From contig OX597835.1 in NCBI GenBank assembly GCA_951406725.2, positions 36,828,001-36,892,000 on the forward strand: DNA of 64,000 nt, read 5' to 3'. Each line of letters opens with the position of its first letter. Position 1 is the stretch's first letter. The position numbers and the translations under genes are program-made. The notes under the pieces were generated by a model. The model was not told where the DNA came from. It worked only from the letters and a program-made list of their open reading frames with translations, and made no database searches. This document shows, in pieces, positions 1,744-56,600 of this stretch. This stretch comes from Octopus vulgaris. Lineage: Eukaryota.

Positions 1744-3708
1744 TATGTTTGACTTTTGCTTTATATTTGTACAAGTTGGCTCCAAGTCTCACCCAGAGAC
1801 CTCAAGAGACAACAGGGTTGGAAGTTCATGTTGTTGTTATGCCTAGTGTGCCATATATTTGGGGGTGGGGATGTTGTACTAATGAATGTCTAAAAAAAAA
1901 AAAAGTTTTTTTTTTTTTTTTTTTTTTAAACCGAAAATTATGGTTTGTTTTAAACCTTGAGATTACATAGAGAGTATTTTGCGTAGGATATGAGCAGTTC
2001 CCATGAGCACTATCTTTTGAACTTCTGCCATTTTTGGGTTTCCTGGTATCTGAGTTAGGTAGCTATCAGCCCCTTTTGCTATCATTCCCAGGGCACCTAT
2101 GACAACAGGTATTGTTTTAGTCTTCAGCTTCCACATTTTGCTGATTTCTATTTCAAGATCTTTATATTTGCTCAGTTTTTGGTAGGTCTTGACAGATACG
2201 TTTATATCGATTGGGACAGTCATATCAATGAGGAGGCATGTTCTTTGTTTGAAGTCTTTCAATATGATGTCTGGCCTATTTGCATCTATCTTCCTGTCAG
2301 TTTGAATGGTGAAGTTCCAGAGGAGTGAGATGTGGTCATTTTCAAGCACTGGAGGTGGATTGTGTTCCCACCAGTTTTTTTCATGGGGCAAATCCAGGTT
2401 TTTACAGATTACCCAGTGAATATATTGTGCAGCTCTATCGTGCCTGTTGAGATACTCTGTAGGCGCTAGAAGACTGCACTTGGAGACCACATGGTCAATG
2501 GTTTCATTTTGTTGCTTGCATACACGACACGTTGGGCTACTGATCTTTAATATGTTGGCCTGGTAGTTTCTTGTTGGTAGGCATTGATCTTGAGCTGCTA
2601 TGATAAACCCCTCTGTTTCAGATTTTAAGCCAGAGGCCATTAGCCATTGATGGGTCAGGGCTTTGTCGATATCTGCATTATTCGCTCTCTTTGGGTATTT
2701 GCCATAGAGAGGTTTTTCTTGCCATTTATTATTCAGAATATCTAAGGCCGCAGTTTTGGCACGGGTTTTCATGCGCCTAGCTTTTTCTGTGCTTGTTTCT
2801 TGTATGTCTATCTCTAATTCCGAAATTGGTTGTATTCGGAATTCACTTAGATATTCCTTTGCCTGTTTTGTGACTGAGTATGATGCTTTCTTGTTTTCAT
2901 GTTTTGAGACAAGTTTTAACATCCAGTCCTCAGAGTTTTTCAGGTAGGTGTCTAGGCCAATTGTAGCAATCTTCATTGTTATTGCCAGTTGCAAAAGACC
3001 ACGGCCTCCCTCTTTTCTTGGCAGATAGAGTCGTTCTGTATCTGCCTTAGGGTGGTGCATTCTATGCATTGTCAACAGTTTCTTATTTTTCTGTCGAGCT
3101 GACATATTTCAGTAATTGACCAGTTAACAATATTGAAACTGTAAGTCACGACTGGTATAGCTAATGCATTGATTGCTTCGATCCTGTTTCTTGCATTCAG
3201 CTCTGTCTTGAGTATTGCTCTCACTCTTCGATAGCATTCTCTCCTGATCCTTTCCTTCATCTCTGAATGCCTTATTCCGTTCCCTTCAATTACCCCTAGG
3301 TACTTGTAGCTCTCCGCTGGGTCTAGTTCTTTTATGACATTCTGTTGGTCAAGGTTAACGTTAGATGTTTCTGTCATTTTTCCTTTGATAAAGGTAGCCT
3401 TTGCACATTTATCGAGGCCGAATTGCATTCTGATGTCGTCACTGAATTGTTTGACTATCGCTAGTAAGCCCTTGAGTTGTTGATCATTTTTTGCAAAAAG
3501 CTTTAAATCATCCATGTAAACGAGATGATTTATATTTTTATCAAACATTTTATACCCGTACTGCGCGTCATTGAGCAGCTTTGAGAGAGGTATTAAGGAT
3601 AAACAAAAGAGGAGTGGTGACAGTGAGTCACCCTGGAAAATGCCACACGAAATTTTTACATCACCAGCATTTAGGGATTCACTGTCACTGTTCATAGTTA
3701 GTGTGGTT
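1743..3708 (-). mobile_element. 5'-truncated R4/Dong-like non-LTR retrotransposon (RT + CCHC + RLE endonuclease) with 3' UTR, inserted in (TTA)n
   Basis: ORF 3072-3695 has GIFQGDSLSP and YMDD; a frameshift leads to ORF 1963-3105 with CRVC..ETIDHVVSKC, RHD and RPDII..IDMTVP; (TTA)n arrays on both sides (about 1704-1742 and 3712-3763). Confidence 0.92.
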
Positions 3709-3711
3709 CTC

Positions 3712-3743
<32 letters not shown>

Positions 3744-3764
3744 GTTATTATTATTATTATTATG

Positions 3765-3900
3765 AAGACAGCAAGCTGGCAGATTACTTAGTGGTGTTTC
3801 ATCCCTCTTTATGTTCTGAGTTCAAATACTGTCAAGGTTGACTTCGCCTTTCATCCTTTCTGGGTCAATAAATTAAGTACTAGTGAAACACTGGGGTTGA
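3765..3900 (+). mobile_element. SINE family C fragment (Nin-domain-like core)
   Basis: GTTGACTTCGCCTTTCATCCTTTC..GGTCAATAAATTAAGTAC core shared with copies at 21146, 36168 and 57172. Confidence 0.7.
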
Positions 3901-4420
3901 TGTATTCAACAACTAGTCCCATTCCCCAAAAGGTCAGGCCTTCTTCTTCTTCAAATGATGGTGGCGGCAGTCTCATTTGTAGGAAGGCTTTGGTCAGCCC
4001 GAGGCTTTAGTAGAAGACACTTGCCCAAGGTGCCACGCAGTGGGGCTGAACCCGGAACCATGTGGTTTGTAAGCAAGCTACTTACCACACAGCCACTCCT
4101 ATGCCTATATTTAAGATTAATTGAAAGAAACACTGAGCATCTCAACAGAAATGTGATAACAAAAGGGTTAATATCCATTGTCTGTGCTGGCATGGTTGGA
4201 CAGTTTGACCAGAGCTAGCAAACCAGGGAGCTGCACCAAGTTCCAGTCTGATTTCGCATAGTTTCTAAGGCTTGATGCCTTTCCTAAAGCCAACCACTTC
4301 ACATAATGTGCTGGGTGCTTTTGCATGGAACCACACAAGCGCTTTTCTGTGGTGCCAAGCAGGGGCTTTTACATGGCACTGCGCACACACGCACACATAT
4401 ATCATCATCAGCAGCAGCAG

Positions 4421-9669: not shown

Positions 9670-11020
9670 ATCTCTCTCTCTTCCTCCGTCTGTCTTGATA
9701 GACAATGGGTCACGCCATGGGTGGGGCCTACTTTGATGATGAGCAGCGTCTGCTGTGACTGAACAGTCCAATTCTAGAGTGGCAGTCCCTGGTACAGTTG
9801 CTGCACACGAACATCGATGGGTACGTGTGGGGTGTTGCTGCAGTTGTCCTCCTCCTGTCCCGCCTGTCCGACCACAGCTGTGCAATCCTTTCCTCAGCCA
9901 TGGAAACGCCTTTCCTCACTGTCCGACACCAGGCAGAGCGGTCAGCAGCTGTTACCTCCCACGTGTCCACACAGATGTTGGCAGTCCTCAGGTCGCGCTT
10001 GCACACATCCCTGTATCGTAGCTGTGGACGTCCCTTGGGTCGGGATCCCGTGGTGAGTTCGCTGTACAGGATGTCTTTAGGCATGCGACCGTCCTGCATG
10101 CGGCAGACGTGTCCGAGCCAGCGCAGTCGTCTCCGCACGAGGAGGGCATGCATGCTTGGCATATTAGTCTGTTCTAGGATGACTCCGTTTGGTACTCGGT
10201 CCTTCCAGGAGATGCCAAGGATCCGTCGAAGACACTGCATGTGGAAGCCGCTGAGGCGGCATTCTTGCCAGGTATATGTTGTCCAGCTCTCGCTGCTGTA
10301 GAGTAGGGTGCTCAGCACGCAGGCTCGGTACACTGCGATCTTGGTGGTTATTGTGAGCATGTTGTATTCCCACACTCTCCTGGAGAGCTTAGCCATGGCA
10401 GCAGCAGCCTTCCCAATCCGTCTGTTCAGCTCCGGCTCGAGGGACAGGCTGCTGGAGACCGTCGATCCCAGGTAAGTGAACTCGTTCACCACCTGCAAGC
10501 TGTGGTCGCCGACACTGATGCTGGGGACCCCTCCGACGTCCTGGCCCATGATCTCTGTCTTTTTCAGGCCGATGGTAAGGCCGAACTCTTGCCAGGGAGC
10601 TGACCAGCCTCTGGAGACCCAGCTGGTTGTGTGATGTTAGGGCGGCATCGTCAGCAAAGAGGATCTCTCTGATCAGCACCTGATGGACTTTGGTCTTAGT
10701 TCTGAGGCGCGCAAGATTGAACAATCCACCATCATCCCTGGTGTGGAGGAACACTCCGTTGTCGGACGTTCTGAAGGCATAGGACAGGACAAGGGAGAAG
10801 AAAATTCCGAAGAGCGTCGGCGCCAGAACGCAACCCTGTTTCACTCCACTCTGGATGGGGAATGACTCCGAGGGCGATCCGTCAAACTGCACTGTTCCCT
10901 GCATACCGTCGTGAAAAGAGGTGATGAGTTTCAGCAGTCTGGGAGGGCAACCTATCCTACCCAGGAGCGCAAACAGCCCCTCCCTGCTGACTGAGTCGAA
11001 CGCCTTAAGGCGTTCGACTC
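9670..11020 (-). mobile_element. 5'-truncated RTE (BovB-like) LINE, RT C-terminal half, inserted in (TA)n
   Basis: [25 protein letters not shown]; a frameshift leads to ORF 9728-10549 (FTYLGS, RRLRWLGHVCRM, C-terminal CxxC..H..C). Visibly more GC-rich than the flanks. Confidence 0.92.
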
Positions 11021-14035: not shown

Positions 14036-14405
14036 GTATAGGAAAGAATGGAGATTTAACAAAATTCCTTTATTTTATTTTCGACATATGTTTCGAAGTC
14101 TGCAATATTTCACGTCGACATTTTTAAGCATAAAGCGGAATTCTATAATGCTGCCCTGTCAAAAGCTGGTTATAGGGAAAAGGTAACATATATAGACCTG
14201 GCCCTTCCGAAACCAGAATTTTCTCATCGGGATAAGTCAACTTACAATAATATAAATAATATAAGTAGTGATGGTAGCTTTAGTAATATCGACACAAGTA
14301 CAGCTAACACAAATATAGCTAACATAAATAATTTGCGGTCCAAGGGAGACCATCGTAGGCCAAAACCCATTATTCAACCCAGAGATGCCCCCCTTAATGT
14401 AAGAG

Positions 14406-15416
14406 TTGACTCTCCGAGCCAGTACTAGAACAGGAAAAAACTATATCTGGTTTGTGATTCCCTTTGGTAAACAAATCAGATCTAACCTACCGTTGCAGTT
14501 CCGCCAAGCCATTGCCAGAAATTTTCCCAGAAATTTGAGATATTACTCCACTATAAATTCGCACAAAGTAAGGATAGCTTTCTCAAATACTAAAAATCTT
14601 TCACAGATAATTGCCTCCCATAACATTAAGCTGCTAAATAAGGCCCTGTCACCCATGAGCAGAGACTCTGCCCCGTTAAATTCCAACATAAGATATAGTA
14701 ATAATAATAATAATAGAAGTAGCACAGATATTAGCAGCCTTCATACCAGCATTGGCGTTAGTAATAGTAATAAGGATAAGAGCACTGACCTCGTCATTAA
14801 CGGAGGGAGTCTCAACAATAATATTAGCAGCGGTTTTAACAACAGTAGTTTTACGGACATTATCAATCACAGCATTCCCAGAAACAGGGAATATGCAGGT
14901 GATATTGCCTTAAATAGTAATGATAATGGGGTGAATAGTATCGAATCCAGCGGTAGTTTTTACAACCATCATAGTAATAAGAACGCTGTATTAGTATCGG
15001 AAACTAATCCCAATAGAATAAGGTTCTTATCAAATAACTCCAAAATTAGAAACGCCATTTACCAGTGCAGAATTTATGCTGGATCCGATGTCTTCCTCTA
15101 TATCGGCGCTACATCATCTAAATTAGCCACAAGAATATCGAACCATTTTTCCACATTTAGGGATAAAAAGAAACAACACTCTACTGGGCTAAGCAAATTA
15201 GTCTGGCGTTTGAAGAACACGAATTCAACTTTTAGGCTGGAATGGTCAATATTATCGGTGACTTTACCGTTTGATAAGGGCAAAAAAATCTGTGCCCTAT
15301 GTAATTCCGAACTCTTTCATATTCTGTTTGCCCAAGGCCGACTAATAAACTCGATTGTGGAGAGTTCTTTCAGATGCCCACACTGGAAAAAGCATACCTT
15401 TTTCTCATACCAATGA
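14406..15416 (+). pseudogene. PLE C-terminal region with GIY-YIG endonuclease (truncated; the ORF start is not a real start)
   Basis: IWFVIPF...HN linker, NAIYQCRI...LYIGAT...RISNH, C..C..E, C-terminal CPH. Confidence 0.85.
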
Positions 15417-19519: not shown

Positions 19520-19685
19520 AAAAAAAATATATATATCTATATATATTACGGAGATGTACTTGCATAGCAAGTGATTTGATCTGGATCGAGTGCTGAAACG
19601 AAAACAATTGCAGCATGGAAGGTGTTTGTAAGTCATTTAAGAAACACACAAAAGCCGTTCGATTCACTTCAACATTTAAGTTTAA

Positions 19686-19736
19686 TTTGTCAAAATATTT
19701 TCGTCGCTTTAAGACCGCGACCTGTTCACTGACAAA
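19686..19736 (-). ncRNA. Minimal type I hammerhead, G3:C8 variant
   Basis: TTTGTCA-GTGAACA-G-GTCGC-loop-GCGAC-GAAA-ATAT-TT-TGACAAA. Confidence 0.75.
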
Positions 19737-19771
19737 AATCCGTGCTGCATCCGTGAGATGCAGCACGGATT

Positions 19772-19822
19772 TTTGTCAGTGAACAGGTCGCAGTCTTAAA
19801 GCGACGAAAATATTTTGACAAA
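19772..19822 (+). ncRNA. Minimal type I hammerhead, G3:C8 variant
   Basis: Same motif on the plus strand in the other arm. Confidence 0.75.
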
Positions 19823-19903
19823 TTAAACTTAAATGTTGAAGTGAATCGAACGGCTTTTGTGTGTTTCTTAAATGGCTTACAAACACCTTCCACGCTGCAA
19901 TTG

Positions 19904-19945
<42 letters not shown>

Positions 19946-21434: not shown

Positions 21435-23942
21435 TGGTGGTGGAACACTGTAGTTGACAGGGCTATTAGACAAAAGAGACAGGCTTGGAAGGACTGGAAG
21501 AACGGTGGTAGCAGGGAATTGTATCAGACAGCCAGAAGGGAAGCTAGGAGACAGGTTTATTTAGCCAGAGGGGAAGCGGATAAGAAAAAATTTGCCAATG
21601 TTCTGAGCCATGAGGATGAAAGACTTGAGGTATTTCGTGTTGCAAGACAGTGTGTGAGAGAGAATCGTGATGTGGTAGGAGAGAAGTGTGTTCGCATGGA
21701 TGATGGTTCACTTGTGCTAAATGAGTATGCAAAGAGAGAGGTTTGGAGATGCCACTATGAAAGGTTGCTGAATAAAGAAAATGAATGGGATAAAGAGTGT
21801 CTGCCGAATGTCAACCCAACAGAGCATGAAGACAGGGAAAGCCCCAGGCCCATCAGGAATTACTGCAGAGATGCTCAAAATATCTGGCAGTGTCGGCTAT
21901 AACCTAGTCACCCGTATAGTCAACCAGGTGATACACGAAGGAGTCATACCCAATGACTGGTGTAGCAGCATACTAGTCAACTGCTACAAAGGTAAAGGTG
22001 ATGCCCTGGATACAAATAATTACAGAGGTATCAAGCTGTTGGATCAGGTAATGAAGGTTACGGAGAGGGTCATAGCCCAACTAATTAGAGAGAGAGTTAG
22101 TTTAGATGAGATGCAGTTTGGGTTGTCCCAGGGAAAAGCACCACTGATGCTATATTCCTGGTAAGGCAGCTGCAGGAGAAACACCTAGCCAAGGATAAGC
22201 CCTTGTACCTGGCTTTCGTTGACATGGAGAAAGCTTTTGATAGGGTCCCCCGATCCCTCATCTGGTGGTCAATGAGGAAACTAGGGATAGATGAATGGCT
22301 GGTGAGGGCTGTGCAAGCCATGTACAGAGATGCCGTAAGTAAGGTTAGGATTGGCAACATGTACACAGAAGAATTCAAAGTAGAGGTTGGGGTCCACCAG
22401 GGTTCAGTACTCAGCCCCCTCCTATTTATCATAGTCCTCCAGGCAATTACGGAGGAATTCAAGACAGGTTGCCCCTGGGAGCTCCTCTACGCTGACGACC
22501 TTGCTCTAATTGCTGAGTCACTATCAGAACTGGAGGAGAAGTTCCAGGTGTGGAAGGAGGGTTTAGAATCGAGGGGCCTTAGAGTCAACCTAGCTAAAAC
22601 CAAAGTACTAATAAGTAGGAAGGTAGACAATCCACAAATGTCTTCAGGAAGATGGCCCTGCTCGATCTGTAGAAAAGGTGTAGGTAGAAACTCTATAAGA
22701 TGTACCCAGTGTAAGCTATGGACACTAAGAGGTGCAGCAATGTCAAAGGTAGGCTAACTGGGAAGATAGTTTTTGTATGTGGCAGATGCTTGGGAGCATT
22801 AACCTCCGAAAATCTGCAGAAAACAACTTCCGTCACTTTCCAGGGGAAAAACTAGAAGTAGTTGATAGCTTCCGTTATCTAGGTGACCAAGTCAGTAGTG
22901 GGGGTGGGTGCGCTGAAAGTGTAACTGCTAGAATAAGAATAGCCTGGGCAAAGTTTAGGGAGCTCTTACCTCTGCTGGTGACTAAAGGCCTCTCGCTCAG
23001 AGTAAAAGGCAGACTGTATGATGCATGTGTACGAACAGCCATGCTACAAGGCAGTGAAACATGGGCCGTGACTGCTGAGGACATGCGTAAGCTCGTGAGG
23101 AATGAAGCCAGTATGCTCCGATGGATGTGTAATGTCAGTGTACATACTCGACAGAGCGTTAGTACCTTGAGAGAAATGTTGTACCTAAGAAGCATCAGTT
23201 GTGGTGTGCAAGAGAGACGATTGCGCTGGTATGGTCATGTGGTGAGAATGGATGAAGATAGGTGTGTGAGAAAGTGCCAATCCCTAGCAGTTGAGGGAAC
23301 CCGTGGAAGAGGTAGACCCAGGAAAACCTGGGACGAGGTGGTGAAGCACGACCTTTGAACTTTAGGCCTCACTGAGGAAATGACCAGCGACCGAGACCTT
23401 TGGAAATATGCTGTACGTGAGAAGACCAGGCAGGACAAGTGAGCCCAGCCCACTTATGAATGCCTTTCCTCCCTTGGACACAAAGACCTGTTGAGGCAAG
23501 CGAAGTCAGTATAGAACCTCATCCGACGACAGGCACCCATGCCAACCCCCTTTGCTTGCGAAGACATGTTGGGTCAAGCGAAATAGAAATCGAATTGAAC
23601 CAGCCAGGATCCCTGGTCTGGTGGTACGTAAAAAGCACTATCCGACTCGTGGCCGATGCCAGCGCCGCCTCGACTGGCTTCCGTGCCGGTGGCACATAAA
23701 ATACACCAATCCGACCATGGCCGTTGCCAGCCTCGCCTGGCACCTGTGCAGGTGGCACGTAAAAAGCACCCACTACACTCACGGAGTGGTTGGCGTTAGG
23801 AAGGGCATCCAGCTGTAGAAACATTGCCAGATAAGACTGGAGCCTGGTGCAGCCTTCTGGCTTCCCAGATCCCCGGTCGAACCGTCCAACCCATGCTAGC
23901 ATGGAGAACGGACGTTAAACGATGATGATGATGATGATGATG

Positions 23943-30890: not shown

Positions 30891-31416
30891 TATTAAAATT
30901 ACTAAGTCTCTCTAAAAGAGAACAACGGCAGCGTTCCCGGAAAATAATAGTTATCGCCATACTAATATGGCATTCTTATAAAAATAAGAATAAAGCTGAC
31001 CGCTTATTAGCTCCATGAGGCCATCGCCTTAAGTTAGCTATTTGATACACAAACTGTATCCATATAAACTTCGAACAAGGAAGGTCAGTCGCTCCACACT
31101 ACTTGACCGGCAGCTACAGACGCGTTTCGGGGTATTGCCCCTTTTCAATGCAGCGTAGCCAGACCAGTAGGTGTCGCTTCTGACAATCTCTGTTCGAAGG
31201 TTTTATTTACCTAGCTTCGGTGGAATACATCCACTTGTTTTCAATAATAGAAATATTAAAATTACTAAGTCTCTCTAAAAGAGAACAACAGCAGCGTTCC
31301 CGGAAAATAATAGTTATCGCCATACTAATATGGCATTCTTATAAAAATAAGAATAAAGCTGTCCGCTTATTAGCTCCATGAGGCCATCGCCTTAAGTTAG
31401 CTATTTGATACACAAA
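30885..31416 (-). mobile_element. Hammerhead-bearing ~363-nt unit in 1.46 tandem copies (retrozyme / non-autonomous PLE-like)
   Basis: 169-bp direct repeat 30885-31053 / 31248-31416 (period 363); hammerhead in the unique part; starts at a (TA)n array. Confidence 0.8.
31113..31154 (-). ncRNA. Minimal type I hammerhead, U3:A8 variant
   Basis: GCTGCA-TTGAAAA-GGGG-CAATA-CCCC-GAAA-CGCG-TC-TGTAGC; all three helices pair. Confidence 0.8.
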
Positions 31417-46881: not shown

Positions 46882-47570
46882 AGTGCTCAGGTGCACCACA
46901 ACTTGTCAAAAGTGCGTATAAAGCATATGCAGTAATGTACAAATGTCTGGAAAGCGAAGTGTATAAGTCAGATACATGCTTGCGTGTGTATGGAGGGGAG
47001 AAAATCAGGTGTAGTGTTGGCGAATCTCAGGAAGCATGGAAGTTTTGAAGGATGCAGTGCTCCGACAACTAACAACTGATGCTGTTTCCAAAAGTCTAAC
47101 AACTAACAATGTATCCAAAAGTCATGTGAGCTGTGCTGTTTTCAGACTTTGTAAACATGTTCACGGGTGTTAGACAGGTGGAGTTTGAAAAGGTGCTCAG
47201 AGTTATTGTTAGTAAGATGGTTAATCATTTTATTGGTGTCTGCCAAGTCAGTTGCCAGATGTCGGAGTTTCAATGTGTCCATGCCCAGGGAAGTAAGGTG
47301 TTCAGAATATGGCAAATGCCTAATGGAGGATATTCTCTTGGTTGCACTTTGCTGAACGGTTTCCAGATGATTTATATCTTGGGCAAGATAGGGGTTCCAG
47401 ACCAGTGATGCAAATTCCAGGTGAGGCTGTACCATAGCTATATAAAGCTTCATATAGATAGCCGGAGAGCAGCTCACAAAGGACTTGGTAAGTAATGCCA
47501 AGACACCCTCAGCCTTCTTGGCAATTTTAGCAATGTGTTTTGTCCAATGCAAATCGCTGGCTGGATTTAT
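46882..47570 (-). pseudogene. CR1-clade LINE 3' fragment (RT C-terminus + 3' UTR)
   Basis: W.KHI..I.KKA..VL..L.KSF...LY..MV.PHLE...VWNP.L..DI..LE.VQ..ATK. Confidence 0.85.
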
Positions 47571-48471
47571 AGTGTCACTGACAACGATAATCCTTTCTAC
47601 TATAGGCATATGTCTTAAATATTGGGGAGGGAACCAGTCGATTAGATCGACCTCAGAATGCAAGTGGGGCTTAATTTATCGACCAAGAAAGGATGAAAAC
47701 CAAAAGTCAACCTCAGTGGAATTTGAACTCAGAACATAGCGCCACTGATAACAATATTGATAATGCCTTATAAGCTGTCATTTATTTGTGTCTTAGCAGT
47801 GGGGGTTCTATTTGTCCTTTATGAACATTATGTCCCATGATTTTGGGGTGTTAAAATTCATCGAAAAAAGGACCTTACTGGGTCAAATAAAGTGAGGGTC
47901 AGCATGATGAAGGGCATCTTGCCCCAGAATACTGTTGACTCGACAATTTTCACTGAACCCTTTCCAGCCTGGGAAGCAACATAAAACCAAAGGTGGTGAC
48001 TATGACACTGTTGAGAATGATGATGATGATATTGATGATCACTATGACAATGATGGTAATGACAATGGTAGCGGTGAGAGTGGCGATGATGATGAAGATG
48101 AAGATGATCTTTACAATCCGCCTTTCTTACACCACTTGGCAATACTCACTATAGAAATATATATGTCTAATTAATCTTCTCTCTACCTCTCCTCCCTGTC
48201 TCCCCCCTCTCTCTCTTTTTGTTTCAGTCTATTGGTTTTTTTTCCCTCTTTCATTCTCATTCTCAGAATATGACATGTCTCTTTGTTGTATATGTGTAGT
48301 ATGCATGTGGTACACACACACACATATATATATACCTGTGTATGGGTTTGTGTGGATGTGCGCGCGTGCATGTGTGCGAGCATATACGTATAAATATAAG
48401 TATATATATACATTTATACACACTGTCATGCACACACATATATATGTATATATGTATATATATAATTTATA

Positions 48472-49597: not shown

Positions 49598-49823
49598 GTA
49601 ATGATTATGATGGTGGTGATGGTGGCAGCAGCGGTGGTGTTGCTACTGCTGCTGCTGCTCTTGACACCTGTTTCTTGTACTTTTTCAGACTCCCTATGTG
49701 TTCACATATATACATTCACATTTATCTATGTATATATATATATAATTGCAGCGTGGGAGGTGTTTATAAGCCATTTAAGAAACACACAAAAGCCGTTCGA
49801 TTCACTCCAACATTTGAGTTTAA

Positions 49824-49873
49824 TTTGTCAAAATATTTTCGTCGCTAAAATCCGCGACCTGTTCACTGACAAA
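49824..49873 (-). ncRNA. Minimal type I hammerhead, G3:C8 variant (left arm)
   Basis: Reverse complement of 53783-53832. Confidence 0.75.
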
Positions 49874-50837
49874 GTCCGTGCTGCATCTAAGAAAGTAACA
49901 GTTAGTTCGTCATATATATGTATGTACGTATGTATGTGTGTATGTACGCATACATGTGTGTATGTATGTACGTATTCATGTCCGCACATACGCCTGTGTA
50001 TGCATGTATGTATGTATGTATGTATATATGTATGTGTGTGTATAAGCACGCACATACACTCTATAAAACATAAAGTTATAAACCTGTAGCGATGGATGGA
50101 TGTAGAGTGACCACTCATCACAACGCTATCAAATTTCAACTCCCTACGGCCGAGGCTAGAAAGTGAATTTATGACGCTTGCTCACAAGAACTATACCCTC
50201 AAATCTATTATCAGATTTTTATCTCTATATCACAGAACTAATGTTTTACTATTGTTCGTATGTATGTATGTATGTATGTGCGTATGTATGTATGTATGTA
50301 TGTATGTATGTATGTATGTATGTATGTATGTACATACGTACGCATGTGCGTATGTATGTATACGCGCCCGTATGCATGTGCCCATGTATGTGTGTGTGTA
50401 CATGTACGTGCGTATGTACGTGTGTATGCCCATACGTAGGTATGTATGTATGTTTGTATTCATGTGCTACGTATGTATGTGAGTGTCTAGGAGAATGGGC
50501 AGATGTGTCCGTGAGAGTGTGTACATGTGTATGTGTATGTGAACGTATGTCCGTGTACTGGCATGTGTCCGTCCAAGTTGTGTACATGACTGTTACTTAG
50601 CTGAAGGTTGTATACATATTTACATATATGTTTGTATAGACGCACACACATATATATATATGTGTGTGGGTGTGTGTTTGTTCCTCTCATCGTCGTCTAA
50701 CCGTGAATGGGTACAACGCCTAGGTGCGACTGTTCGTATCAAACAACGTCTGCTCATACCGTTGTATATAACTGCACATACGCATTGCAACCTGTATGTA
50801 AGGACTACAGGTGAAAGGGAGAGAGAGAGAGGGGTGG

Positions 50838-51737
50838 TTATAGAATAGTCCTTCTGAATGGGATCTGGATGTTATTCCATTCGGACTTTCGGTTGAGAGT
50901 AGGTTTGTATTCTTGTATACAAACAGCTTCTGTGACCTGTCTCAACATTGCATCGGTGGGATGTGTAGATAGGATGTTCAACTTAAGCTCCCCTAAGGAT
51001 CCCTTGTGGCAGTCTACAGCATGTTGGTAGAAGATGGAGTTTGGCTTCCTTTCAATGTAGTTGTCCAGGTGTTCTTTGAACCTATCATTGATGCTTCTAG
51101 AGGTCTCACCTATGTATGACTCCGGGTTAGCCGCGCAAGCTCCCTCCTGGCACTTAATCTGGTATACAGTGCCCTTGGTTTTACAATTTACGTGTGGATT
51201 TGTCGAACACACTGCACAATTACTCTGACAGGTGATTCTATCAAATGGATATGATCTGCATAATGCCGATTTGATAGTCCTACCTGTCTTTTCTACAACT
51301 TTAACTTTTAGGCCCGTAGTGCGCAGGACTTTCTTGAATGCCTTACTTAGCTCGTTCATAGGTGTGGCGTCAACGAACATCACTCCGTGAAATCTCCTGT
51401 TATCGTACCAAGTAACGTTTCTCATCTTTTTGTTGGTGTCCCTCTCTAACCTATTCCAGAACTTGTTGCGGTACAGGGGGCATATACCGTTTTCGTCGTT
51501 CCCTAGAATGCGTTCGAATCTAGCTTTCGCTCCTTTGTACACCCTGACTCTATCGTCTTGTGTGTATCCGGAACGTTGCATTCGGAATATGTAGTGCTGG
51601 ATGTGTTGTTGTCGTTCTTGTGGTTGGCATAGTGGTGATACATTCCTCATTACTCTAACTAAGTCTGCCACTAGGATGTTGAGTTTGGCAGTATCCGACA
51701 CAGCTGAGTCACTACGGATTACTAGTGGATTAGCCAT
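50838..51737 (-). CDS. PLE C-terminal fragment: RT thumb + Cys-rich linker + GIY-YIG endonuclease (Naiad-like by motif)
   Basis: (HYQKP)MANPLVI..., C...CAVC...NCKTKGTVYQIKC...YIGETSRS...RF.EH...RQVTEAV.I....P.LN.K.EW. Confidence 0.85.
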   Translation of the reverse strand: MANPLVIRSDSAVSDTAKLNILVADLVRVMRNVSPLCQPQERQQHIQHYIFRMQRSGYTQDDRVRVYKGAKARFERILGNDENGICPLYRNKFWNRLERDTNKKMRNVTWYDNRRFHGVMFVDATPMNELSKAFKKVLRTTGLKVKVVEKTGRTIKSALCRSYPFDRITCQSNCAVCSTNPHVNCKTKGTVYQIKCQEGACAANPESYIGETSRSINDRFKEHLDNYIERKPNSIFYQHAVDCHKGSLGELKLNILSTHPTDAMLRQVTEAVCIQEYKPTLNRKSEWNNIQIPFRRTIL

Positions 51738-51915
51738 CGGTTTCTGATAGTGTGAGTGGAGTATACATGGTTTAATGTGAGTTTAGTGTGAGTGGAGTAT
51801 ACATGGTTTAATGGTACCATTAACTATAGTTAATGGTACCATTAAACCATGTATACTCCACTCACACTAAACTCACATTAAACCATGTATACTCCACTCA
51901 CACTATCAGAAACCG

Positions 51916-52815
51916 ATGGCTAATCCACTAGTAATCCGTAGTGACTCAGCTGTGTCGGATACTGCCAAACTCAACATCCTAGTGGCAGACTTAGTTAGAG
52001 TAATGAGGAATGTATCACCACTATGCCAACCACAAGAACGACAACAACACATCCAGCACTACATATTCCGAATGCAACGTTCCGGATACACACAAGACGA
52101 TAGAGTCAGGGTGTACAAAGGAGCGAAAGCTAGATTCGAACGCATTCTAGGGAACGACGAAAACGGTATATGCCCCCTGTACCGCAACAAGTTCTGGAAT
52201 AGGTTAGAGAGGGACACCAACAAAAAGATGAGAAACGTTACTTGGTACGATAACAGGAGATTTCACGGAGTGATGTTCGTTGACGCCACACCTATGAACG
52301 AGCTAAGTAAGGCATTCAAGAAAGTCCTGCGCACTACGGGCCTAAAAGTTAAAGTTGTAGAAAAGACAGGTAGGACTATCAAATCGGCATTATGCAGATC
52401 ATATCCATTTGATAGAATCACCTGTCAGAGTAATTGTGCAGTGTGTTCGACAAATCCACACGTAAATTGTAAAACCAAGGGCACTGTATACCAGATTAAG
52501 TGCCAGGAGGGAGCTTGCGCGGCTAACCCGGAGTCATACATAGGTGAGACCTCTAGAAGCATCAATGATAGGTTCAAAGAACACCTGGACAACTACATTG
52601 AAAGGAAGCCAAACTCCATCTTCTACCAACATGCTGTAGACTGCCACAAGGGATCCTTAGGGGAGCTTAAGTTGAACATCCTATCTACACATCCCACCGA
52701 TGCAATGTTGAGACAGGTCACAGAAGCTGTTTGTATACAAGAATACAAACCTACTCTCAACCGAAAGTCCGAATGGAATAACATCCAGATCCCATTCAGA
52801 AGGACTATTCTATAA
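51916..52815 (+). CDS. PLE C-terminal fragment: RT thumb + Cys-rich linker + GIY-YIG endonuclease (identical second copy)
   Basis: Same 299-aa translation as 50838-51737; uninterrupted frame; the RT catalytic core is absent. Confidence 0.85.
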   Translation: MANPLVIRSDSAVSDTAKLNILVADLVRVMRNVSPLCQPQERQQHIQHYIFRMQRSGYTQDDRVRVYKGAKARFERILGNDENGICPLYRNKFWNRLERDTNKKMRNVTWYDNRRFHGVMFVDATPMNELSKAFKKVLRTTGLKVKVVEKTGRTIKSALCRSYPFDRITCQSNCAVCSTNPHVNCKTKGTVYQIKCQEGACAANPESYIGETSRSINDRFKEHLDNYIERKPNSIFYQHAVDCHKGSLGELKLNILSTHPTDAMLRQVTEAVCIQEYKPTLNRKSEWNNIQIPFRRTIL

Positions 52816-53782
52816 CCACCCCCTCTCTCTCTCCCTTTCACCTGTAGTCCTTACATACAGGTTGCAATGCGTATGTGCAGTTATATACAACGGTATGAGC
52901 AGACGTTGTTTGATACGAACAGTCGCACCTAGGCGTTGTACCCATTCACGGTTAGACGACGATGAGAGGAACAAACACACACCCACACACATATATATAT
53001 ATGTGTGTGCGTCTATACAAACATATATGTAAATATGTATACAACCTTCAGCTAAGTAACAGTCATGTACACAACTTGGACGGACACATGCCAGTACACG
53101 GACATACGTTCACATACACATACACATGTACACACTCTCACGGACACATCTGCCCATTCTCCTAGACACTCACATACATACGTAGCACATGAATACAAAC
53201 ATACATACATACCTACGTATGGGCATACACACGTACATACGCACGTACATGTACACACACACATACATGGGCACATGCATACGGGCGCGTATACATACAT
53301 ACGCACATGCGTACGTATGTACATACATACATACATACATACATACATACATACATACATACATACATACATACGCACATACATACATACATACATACGA
53401 ACAATAGTAAAACATTAGTTCTGTGATATAGAGATAAAAATCTGATAATAGATTTGAGGGTATAGTTCTTGTGAGCAAGCGTCATAAATTCACTTTCTAG
53501 CCTCGGCCGTAGGGAGTTGAAATTTGATAGCGTTGTGATGAGTGGTCACTCTACATCCATCCATCGCTACAGGTTTATAACTTTATGTTTTATAGAGTGT
53601 ATGTGCGTGCTTATACACACACATACATATATACATACATACATACATACATGCATACACAGGCGTATGTGCGGACATGAATACGTACATACATACACAC
53701 ATGTATGCGTACATACACACATACATACGTACATACATATATATGACGAACTAACTGTTACTTTCTTAGATGCAGCACGGAC

Positions 53783-53832
53783 TTTGTCAGTGAACAGGTC
53801 GCGGATTTTAGCGACGAAAATATTTTGACAAA
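53783..53832 (+). ncRNA. Minimal type I hammerhead, G3:C8 variant (right arm, 3' pLTR)
   Basis: TTTGTCA-GTGAACA-G-GTCGC-GGATTTTA-GCGAC-GAAA-ATAT-TT-TGACAAA, sense to the ORF. Confidence 0.78.
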
Positions 53833-53969
53833 TTAAACTCAAATGTTGGAGTGAATCGAACGGCTTTTGTGTGTTTCTTAAATGGCTTATAAACACCTCC
53901 CACGCTGCAATTGTTTTCGTTTCAGCACACGATCTCAGATCAAATTACTTGCTATGCGAGTACATCTCC

Positions 53970-54027
<58 letters not shown>

Positions 54028-54057
54028 GTGTATATATATATATTTATATATATGTAT

Positions 54058-54139
<82 letters not shown>

Positions 54140-54278
54140 ACCCATGCTAGCATGGAAAACGGACGTTAAACGATCATGATGATATATATATATATACATA
54201 TATATATATAACCCATGCCCGTCCAACCCATGCTAGCATAAATATATATATATACGATGATATATGATGATTATGATG

Positions 54279-55734: not shown

Positions 55735-56600
55735 GAATAAATCAACCCACAGATTCACCCAGTTCGACATTGACGACTTCTACCCTTCCATATCTAAGCC
55801 CCACCTTCTGAAGATCCTAACATTTGCTGAGCAAGTATTACCCATACAGGAAATCTAATGAAGAAACAGTATACATTCACAAGAGCTCAAACCATCCCTC
55901 ACTGTAATTAAAAATCTGGTTTCAGGCATTGGCAAATGACTATCTAATCTCTCAGTCAATAGAGAGACCTTTAACAGGGTTGCTACCCACTACAACGATG
56001 CTTTGGCTTGGAGCAGGTTTATGGAGAAGCTCATGTATATGGACAACCCTCATACACCCTCTCCTCGCCCCATCTTTCCACCTATGTTGCTAGGGGCTTC
56101 CTGTCATTAGTTAAGAAATACTTCCCCTGAGGCCACAAGTATTACAAACTTTTCAACCCCCATAACGTCAAGTTGAGCTACTCTCGCTTAGATAACTTCA
56201 CATGCATCAACAGACATAAAAATGTACCCGCACCACCCCAACCCTAACCTGCAACTGTCAAAACCCCACTGTGTGCCCTTTAGAAGGATCCTGCCTCTCA
56301 AGGGCTATAGTATACAGAGCCACCCTTATACCATCCAATGACATTACTAGGCACTATACAGGTATGACAGCTAATAACTTCAAGGGAAGATACGCCCAGC
56401 ATAAGCACTCATTCAGTTCCAGGGACAGAGAGAACTCTACTTCCTTGTCTTGTTTTCTCTGGAGACTCCGTGACCTCCAAGACAAAACACCTAGCATCAA
56501 GAGGACTATTGTCGACTGAGCCCCTAAATGCCAGCTTGGCCTCCTCAAAAACTGCATGTCCTCCAACAACCCACAGTATCCATCAACAAGAAATACAATT
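55735..56600 (+). pseudogene. Decayed, internally deleted Neptune-like PLE (RT motif, thumb, GIY-YIG)
   Basis: FDIDDFYPSIS; YIHKSSNHP; CNC...CPLEGSCL..AIVYRA...YTGMT...FK.RY.QH..SF. Confidence 0.82.

Follow-up and report, generated by a model that had tools for sequence, protein, structure and literature searches.

A palindrome in a 64,000-nt stretch of the Octopus vulgaris genome (GCA_951406725.2, contig OX597835.1, positions 36,828,001 to 36,892,000; hereafter, the window) is one very recent insertion of a Penelope-like element (PLE), devoid of its reverse transcriptase (RT), in a (TA)n site. It is a long and very young example of the head-to-head insertions found at about half of the sampled sites of its family. 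The layout of the insertion, the two classes of 3′ ends, the rule of one tail per pair and the private changes common to both arms are direct observations. As to its origin, we incline towards priming of both target strands at the (TA)n site, bridged by snap-back of a cDNA.

Structure of the palindrome

In the assembly, the two arms abut without a spacer and form a palindrome of ca. 4.2 kb (Table 1). The alignment of one arm against the other contained no substitutions and two small indels, an additional T in the left arm and an additional TACA unit in the right arm; the symmetry axis (51826|51827) is perfect, with an exact match over 996 bp on each side. The initial annotation had described two spacer-less arms of ca. 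2.08 kb and a tail limited to the right arm, both of which were confirmed; the tail runs into (TA)n, as does the tail-less end of the left arm. Its view of the element as very young and Penelope-like was also supported. A 30-nt tandem duplication, with copies 6 nt apart, lies near the centre in both arms and was absent from that annotation. Genome-wide, this duplication and the substitution at 53456/50200 had two matches each, in these two arms only, and the palindrome centre occurs once. Position 53768 corresponds to the sharp 5′ end of the short copies of the family and is likely the 5′ end of the family RNA, and the ATG at 53882 in the right pLTR opens the full ORF in tandem copies. A general repeat search of the window was dominated by microsatellites.

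Table 1. Features of the palindromic insertion and its flanks, in window coordinates.
Feature	Position	Strand	Remarks
Left target flank	49731..49743	.	13 nt (TA)n; target-site duplication unresolvable inside (TA)n
Left arm	49744..51826	-	Element 5′-truncated; tail-less 3′ end towards left flank
Left pLTR	49744..49888	-	Mirror of 53768-53912
Left type I hammerhead-like motif	49824..49873	-	G3:C8 core, extra G between 9 and 10.1, palindromic ATAT loop III
Private substitution	50200	-	Common to right arm (53456); 456 nt from tail-less end
Left 299-aa ORF remnant	50838..51737	-	End of RT region, Zn-finger-like linker, GIY-YIG; internal-Met start
Left duplication, 30-nt tandem, copies 6 nt apart	51748..51813	-	Locus-unique
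Centre CTATAG	51824..51829	.	Self-complementary 6-mer, in many intact family copies; adjoins natural 16-bp palindrome
Right arm	51827..53912	+	Element 5′-truncated
Right duplication, 30-nt tandem, copies 6 nt apart	51840..51905	+	
Right 299-aa ORF remnant	51916..52815	+	Residues 701-999 of family RT-EN protein
3′ UTR, microsatellite-rich	52816..53767	+	Private substitution 53456
Right pLTR	53768..53912	+	Rare C allele at 53840 (mirror 49816)
Right type I hammerhead-like motif	53783..53832	+	Predicted cleavage after 53825
58-nt tail	53913..53970	+	In tandem copies, start of next unit's coding region
Right target flank	53971..54140	.	(TA)n-rich

Coding capacity

The ORFs of the two arms are identical and free of internal stops. 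The initial annotation had read them as intact ORFs, each with its own ATG; the ORFs were verified, whereas the ATG encodes an internal Met, which is residue 701 in P0001, a near-full-length RT-EN protein of 999 aa. Therefore, the suggested endonuclease-only unit is unsupported: the ORFs are what truncation has left of the end of a single RT-endonuclease protein. No promoter-like feature was shown upstream; a promoter scan, being based on a bacterial model, is uninformative here. The hairpin dsRNA envisaged in the initial annotation would be a hypothetical product of the locus. Furthermore, the 5′ ends of the 40 other best copies were scattered, as opposed to the recurrent 5′ end expected of such a unit.

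Against the Pfam GIY-YIG model (cut-off, 22.6 bits), the window ORF scored 22.3 bits (E = 1.6e-4) and the 999-aa sequence of family copy L113, in which the endonuclease is C-terminal, scored 25.5 bits. L113 also contains DKSG, SLYPS, GGAIG, YVDD and LDT, which we take to be RT motifs. A Pfam search of the L113 protein matched no RT model, its relatives carry RT-domain labels, and a PDB sequence search returned no matches. A CCHH signature with two Cys between GIY and YIG was read directly as YQIKC-x4-C...YIG...EH...QH. The RT core has been lost from the window copy. The proposed search for a full-length RT-bearing master yielded no complete uninterrupted ORF in any of the 19 loci that had been retrieved because of their long 5′ parts or inverted arms; the N-terminus is missing from L113, and the frames of L111, L112 and L022 are broken, possibly by consensus errors. 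The window copy, without means to move by its own RT, is most likely inert. No host exon was recognised among the window ORFs of at least 150 aa, a threshold at which short exons would be missed.

Classification of the family

On sequence criteria, the family belongs to the EN+ PLEs, having RT followed by a C-terminal GIY-YIG, CCHH (as defined for EN+ PLEs in PMC8557442), pLTR tandems and a hammerhead motif. pLTRs from partial tandems, an optional tail and an inverted truncated copy are all present in the family. It shares with published EN+ PLEs a head-to-head truncated copy, a tail at one end, palindromic inverted junctions, (TA)n targets, partial tandems and a pLTR overlapping the ORF start (PMC8557442, PMC3846280). 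However, its tail measures 58 nt versus 30–40 nt, and both arms in the window are truncated at the same base, resulting in a spacer-less palindrome of 2 × 2.08 kb; no multi-kb case was met among the EN+ PLEs in the accessible portions of these two articles.

A CX2-5CxxC linker closely preceding the next Cys, CCHH and, at the C-terminus, GIY-YIG are common to Nematis-type PLEs (PMC8557442, supplementary fig. S2), and the linker of the family, C-x3-C-x2-C-x7-C, resembles by eye the Nematis rows of that figure and not the long Neptune rows. Although the linker fits, an assignment to Nematis was rejected because of ca. 68 extra aa between RT3 and RT4, which are conserved in relatives. The RT3-to-RT4 distance is ca. 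126 aa in the lineage (at least 121 in 44 of 45 motif-matched proteins) versus ca. 58 in a canonical relative, and canonical PLEs are stated to have no insertion in the RT fingers. The Hydra clade (CCHH absent, CxCX5C linker, DKT) was ruled out by the presence of CCHH and DKS, and Naiad/Chlamys (N-terminal endonuclease) by the C-terminal position of the endonuclease. The family may belong to an unnamed PLE lineage with a C-terminal endonuclease.

Hammerhead-like motifs

A descriptor built from a type I consensus matched once per arm and never in 500 mononucleotide shuffles of the arm. The hammerhead claimed earlier for each arm is thus retained as a putative motif, with its core swapped to G3:C8 in both arms, whereas Rfam gave no hammerhead in the window at the gathering score or at E ≤ 10, only microsatellite-driven miRNA noise. 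The predicted fold comprises stems I and II (z −1.9), and diverged family copies keep the stems and core while loop II varies. Of the features listed for such hammerheads in PMC4209133, the motif shows the insertion at 9/10.1, the G10.1-C11.1 pair and a palindromic loop 3. The family is naturally G3:C8, whereas the native core of PAc, the Poseidon element of Anolis, is C3:G8, and G3:C8 in PAc is a double mutant with partial rescue (PMC11167929).

Head-to-head pairs across the family

The family has 420 exact 3′-motif matches, and the census covered all 74 loci with this exact motif on contigs C1–C3. These comprised 38 head-to-head pairs, of which L090 was called by hand and the other 37 by script, together with 24 solo tailed copies and 12 solo tail-less copies. 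This tabulation, which the initial annotation had proposed, contradicts its view of the locus as exceptional, given that 38 of 74 loci are head-to-head and that L071 on C2 is a larger spacer-less palindrome with 2.66-kb arms. The layout itself is known: truncated copies in inverted orientation, palindromes at junctions and tails on one side have all been published for PLEs. At four non-microsatellite sites, direct repeats of ca. 9–15 bp (identified by eye) bracket whole pairs, and a head-to-head pair is therefore one event. pLTR-body tandems were found at L031+L032 and L111.

Nearly all 3′ ends join (TA)n or AT-rich DNA, and they fall into two tight classes (reference 4223–4234 and 4282 onward). 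Exactly one tail was present in each of the 38 pairs, for which the chance is ca. 4e-14 if ends are independent at solo frequencies. Seventeen pairs were symmetric, whereas the tailed arm was longer in seven and the tail-less arm in 14. At L037, L058, L062 and L070, the tailed arm ends at most ca. 30 nt from the second start site; these four tail-only arms match the pattern of twin priming on one RNA. According to the initial annotation, a 5′-truncated cDNA had folded back and been copied almost to its 3′ end. Fold-back is consistent with the private changes common to both arms, but a simple copy almost to the 3′ end is not: tail-less ends constitute a fixed class of junction that stands solo at 12 of the 74 loci, and a copy stopping short conflicts with the 14 pairs having a longer tail-less arm, for which self-copying of a tailed cDNA would need a later deletion. 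These findings point to a second site of priming at the tail-less end and not to a prematurely stopped copy.

Evidence for possible copying between arms

The presence of the private duplication and substitution in both arms supports fold-back copying. The rare pLTR allele had seven matches at four loci genome-wide and occurred in both arms of all three paired loci carrying it. Among the 12 pairs with informative sub-haplotype sites, 10 were free of mismatches and two differed at one site; between loci, 286 of 660 comparisons were free of mismatches. Private variants common to both arms were also found at L100 (3006G) and L071 (2420T), and a check of 1961A at L071 returned one match instead of two owing to an additional C next to the site in the other arm. 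Hairpin-type centres were observed at L060, L099 and L100, and local snap-back inserts at L126 and L128. The four symmetric long pairs had five shared-private versus six arm-different sites, compared with three versus 26 in another 14 long pairs (p = 0.025 by Fisher's test, which was small and post hoc and left out the old pair L042). The differences between arms probably include consensus errors (homopolymer indels; a G-to-A cluster at L060). Gene conversion between the arms, or a source allele absent from the assembly, could also explain shared private variants.

Origin of the palindrome

In the mechanism towards which we incline, both nicked target strands would prime reverse transcription on one RNA, using two fixed start sites ca. 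58 nt apart; the tailed end would arise from one site and the tail-less end from the other. One cDNA would extend ca. 2.1 kb, slipping en route to generate the 30-nt duplication, halt at the self-complementary CTATAG and snap back. Its self-copy would build most of the second arm and pair with the short cDNA present at the opposite end of the target, and filling in would then yield the spacer-less palindrome. Either cDNA could have been the long one; had the tailed cDNA been long, its partner would have measured < 456 nt. A PLE protein studied in vitro was able to cut and extend both strands of the target and to initiate reverse transcription at two sites on either side of the tail; a dimeric form is predicted for it (PMC11167929). 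This protein derives from Poseidon, which belongs to another clade. PAc, whose TPRT has been studied in vitro, resembles the octopus family in that two RT start sites bound the tail, the tail lies within the ORF start, the target is AT-rich and the pLTR contains a hammerhead; the portions of the article consulted present no analysis of inverted products (PMC11167929). The window alone cannot show how the left end was set, and the two-priming step rests on the family census; the asymmetric pairs could be once-symmetric palindromes with later loss of the centre.

In LINE-1 twin priming, both target strands prime on one RNA, resulting in a 5′ inversion. The arms of such L1 insertions are not known to overlap, and the second primer anneals at variable internal sites, whereas the octopus family has a fixed second site and arms that in most cases are duplicates of one sequence. 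LINE-1 twin priming is mentioned in 10.1101/2024.12.14.628481.

Alternatively, a tailed cDNA might have copied itself, the endonuclease then cutting the hairpin at the pLTR/tail boundary to leave the tail-less end. This pathway, which we regard as unlikely, would explain the private changes in both arms to within 456 nt of the left end and suits the 17 symmetric and seven tail-longer pairs; the tail-less end lies at AATT, PAc cuts ATT motifs (PMC11167929), and a suggestion in PMC8557442 ascribes the tail to endonuclease-mediated resolution. However, the 14 tail-less-longer pairs and the four tail-only arms would require later deletions ending at the second site, and the 12 solo tail-less copies also argue against it. 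Two long cDNAs, one per target strand, that stopped at CTATAG and annealed, with later homogenisation of the arms by gene conversion, would account for the single tail of each pair, the position of the centre on a natural 6-mer palindrome and the abundance of short symmetric pairs ending at the presumed RNA 5′ end. This is nevertheless improbable, since the identical 30-nt slippage would have to occur twice or conversion would have to cross the very centre, the centre duplication exists nowhere else in the genome, and an intramolecular origin is suggested by the hairpin-loop centres of L060, L099 and L100. Self-priming on an antisense transcript, published as a proposal for palindromes at inverted PLE junctions (PMC3846280), would form the head-to-head palindrome before or during integration; it leaves unexplained both the one-tail rule and the joining of fixed start-site outer ends to target DNA, and is very improbable here.

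An assembly or fold-back-read artefact, to which the stretch 51770–51875 uncovered by contigs of four runs (two DNA-type, two guessed RNA) and an odd mirror at L070, centred in (TA)n and possibly such an artefact, might point, is scarcely credible, because the two flanks are dissimilar and do not mirror each other, the arm ends are the two biological end classes, the centre shows templated slippage, the same layout recurs at 38 of 74 loci, some inside direct repeats, and a 175-nt contig of DNA run X5 spans the left junction with no differences. The latter contig has 30 letters on the element side versus a 31-letter standard, and X5 may be the sample behind the assembly. None of the runs listed as holding the sequence is recorded as RNA. 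Coverage by the contigs of X1–X4 is confined to the part common to the family, which begins at 51876, and none crosses the centre; such a hole proves nothing. Short-read libraries are expected to lose long hairpins. Given that the contigs of X2 and X3 (RNA type guessed) continue into the RT part, they stem from other copies. The X1 contig terminates exactly at 49744, which fits an empty or heterozygous site without showing one.

Two-strand priming with snap-back also forms part of a wider reading, which we hold tentatively and with slightly more doubt than conviction. A dimeric RT-endonuclease would use two fixed sites on one RNA and prime both target strands, snap-back would bridge two same-polarity cDNAs, and multi-kb perfect palindromes would routinely enter an animal germ line; the family would perhaps represent the unnamed lineage, with its 68-aa fingers insertion and natural G3:C8 hammerhead. 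Under this wider reading, every pair has exactly one tail because both strands prime from two fixed sites. In the accessible part of the open-access literature, no work devoted to multi-kb spacer-less PLE palindromes, dual PLE priming or this lineage was found.

Significance

Taken alone, the locus is an unremarkable dead insertion, towards the long extreme of a known spectrum. The formation of tandem and inverted PLE structures is called unresolved in PMC8557442, and the family is useful for studying it, offering hundreds of near-identical copies with clean junctions, a strict rule of one tail per pair, and private variants from which the direction of copying between arms can be traced. It yields testable predictions for the existing in vitro PLE system and offers dated, possibly polymorphic long palindromes with which to gauge palindrome instability in an invertebrate germ line.

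Structure of the palindrome and its family

The window (C22, 36828001–36892000) comes from a very microsatellite-rich assembly (2.8 Gb, 227 contigs). As the initial annotation had proposed, the Penelope-like element (PLE) forms a palindrome with a tail on the right only: the symmetry axis lies at 51826|51827, the arms (49744–51826 and 51827–53912) differ by two indels and 0 substitutions, and the 58-nt tail directly follows the right arm. The hexamer CTATAG spans the axis and also occurs in many intact family copies. Near the centre, both arms contain a tandem duplication of 30 nt whose copies are separated by 6 nt; its two matches are confined to this palindrome. The 299-aa ORFs of the two arms are identical, with a GIY-YIG match slightly below the Pfam cut-off. 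The insertion is real and young, and its architecture is already known.

Among proteins, the element's closest relative carries the label Octopus vulgaris (56% identity). A genome search with a 1.1-kb query returned 459 candidates; 40 of these were scored, all with 99–100% identity and a start at query base 49–52; the exact 3′ motif matched 420 times and the tail junction 252 times. Copies extended variably into the reverse transcriptase (RT). The search for RT-bearing full-length masters, which had been recommended, found no intact copy among the loci fetched; one of them, L113, encodes a 999-aa protein with RT and endonuclease (P0001). The start Met of the window ORF corresponds to residue 701 of this protein, and the true family ORF opens within the pLTR (53768–53912; mirror 49744–49888) and continues through the tail. 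Thus, the "own ATG" attributed to each ORF is an internal Met exposed by accident of truncation, which leaves an endonuclease-only unit unsupported.

By its linker and CCHH motifs, which resemble those of Nematis (PMC8557442), the family groups with the C-terminal EN+ PLEs. P0001 and its relatives share a conserved insertion of ~68 aa between RT3 and RT4 (RT fingers), whereas canonical PLEs lack one according to PMC8557442; a GGAIG motif is found in the lineage. Because of this insertion, the family was not assigned to Nematis, and it possibly represents an unnamed lineage.

Most family copies are pLTR stumps of 150–200 nt whose 5′ ends fall sharply at a single site (window 53768–53970; many loci in L033–L106). 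Summed contig depth in sequencing run X1, which is not a copy number, was in the millions over the pLTR versus ~37 on the unique flank, which suggests that an older family derived from the pLTR is very abundant. A Pfam search of window 47145–47675, within one of the RT-like fragments listed below, gave no match.

Additional family loci and other features in the window
Feature	Location	Description
L071	2360–7736 (G000:C2 156.02 Mb)	Spacer-less palindrome; 2.66-kb arms; 1 substitution and 2 single-base indels; centre natural TATA
L100		Symmetric pair; 2.3-kb arms; 7-nt loop
L060		Symmetric pair; 1.4-kb arms; 2-nt loop
Small head-to-head pair, same family	window 19550–19905	Older (93% to reference); tailed arm 19550–19751 (−), tail-less arm 19756–19905 (+)
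GIY-YIG-like fragment	window 56220–56516	Weak Pfam match, E 0.085
GIY-YIG-like fragment	window 14403–15416	By eye only
Fragments resembling non-LTR retrotransposon RT ORFs	window 1963–3821, 9728–10636, 22110–23358, 47142–47675	By eye
(TA)-rich arrays, >1 kb	window ~11.0–12.4, 18.3–19.5, 28.8–30.0 kb

Hammerhead motifs

For the proposed ribozymes, a type I descriptor search detected one hammerhead-like motif per arm and 0 matches in 500 shuffles; an Rfam search found no hammerhead. The core of the motif is G3:C8, an additional G sits at 9/10.1 and loop III is palindromic. The motif was identical in 109 instances across the fetched loci, and changes in diverged copies fell mostly in loop II. Both arms of the older window pair carry the G3:C8 motif. 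PLE hammerheads, as presented in PMC4209133, share the insertion, the G10.1–C11.1 pair and the palindromic loop, and a U3–A8 swap is reported there; a C3G/G8C double mutant was partially active according to PMC11167929. At window 31112–31155 (−), and also in L060, there is a distinct type I hammerhead-like motif whose core is U3:A8 and whose loop III is CGCG; it probably derives from another PLE or retrozyme family.

Census of family loci

The census comprised all 74 loci behind the 98 (of 420) motif matches on three contigs (C1–C3), and leans slightly towards pairs because the motif can sit in either arm. The tabulation of inverted copies called for earlier gave 38 head-to-head pairs (37 by script and L090 by hand), 24 solo tailed and 12 solo tail-less copies. 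Exactly one tail was present in 38/38 pairs (probability ~4e-14 under independence). Seventeen pairs were symmetric within 10 nt, 14 had a longer tail-less arm and seven a longer tailed arm (script classes 18/14/5, with L099 reassigned from symmetric to tail-longer and L090 added). Most were short and began at positions 4078–4085 of the family reference sequence, probably the RNA 5′ end. Direct repeats of ~9–15 bp, identified by eye, bound four pairs at non-microsatellite sites. Since the sample included multi-kb symmetric pairs (L071, L100 and L060), the window palindrome is not unique; L071 is both larger and spacer-less.

Three separate short pairs (L065, L067, L083) and the similar L104 share a centre junction, which would be a hot spot for either 1-nt microhomology or deletion of the centre. 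At L070 (1998–2385), a small pair precedes a mirror image whose centre lies in (TA)n, possibly an assembly artefact or a secondary fold-back. At the complex locus L031+L032 (G000:C4 22.953–22.961 Mb), an inverted arm of 3 kb that lacks the tail is found together with a tailed pLTR copy of 1.1 kb and a body of near-full length in tandem.

Formation of head-to-head pairs

PMC8557442 counts inverted 5′-truncated copies and one-sided tails among the typical features of PLEs, and PMC3846280 reports inverted junctions rich in palindromes and proposes self-priming; 10.64898/2026.07.22.740005, 10.1101/2024.12.14.628481 and PMC6155905 leave our reading unchanged. The tail-less end has the properties of a priming junction: it is found alone, may belong to the longer arm and is where the tailed arm ends in four pairs. 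In agreement with this, two RT start sites and extension of both strands are reported in vitro for the Anolis Poseidon PLE PAc (PMC11167929).

Where palindromes are symmetric, one arm seems to be a copy of its partner. The 30-nt duplication and a substitution at 53456 are private to the window palindrome and common to both arms, as are private variants in L100 and L071; one such check gave a single match owing to a neighbouring indel. Excluding the old pair L042, private sites shared versus differing between arms numbered 5 vs 6 in four symmetric long pairs and 3 vs 26 in 14 others (p = 0.025). Source alleles were common to both arms of pairs. The fold-back copying originally suggested fits the shared private changes but not the priming-junction behaviour of the tail-less end. 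In the simplest model that accommodates both, the two target strands would each prime reverse transcription, one cDNA would stall and snap back, and the copy it made of itself would be captured by the other end. Arm likeness could also reflect gene conversion, later central deletions could have altered pair shapes, and arm differences may partly be consensus errors.

An assembly artefact is very improbable given the distinct flanks, biological arm end points and genome-wide recurrence of the layout. No contig of four runs (X1–X4) covered the palindrome centre; one contig of DNA run X5, which may derive from the assembly's own source sample, spans the left junction with 0 differences and 30 letters on the element side.

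The suggested hairpin RNA would be nothing peculiar to this palindrome. It is the family census that is of value, since with it the formation of PLE inversions becomes testable.
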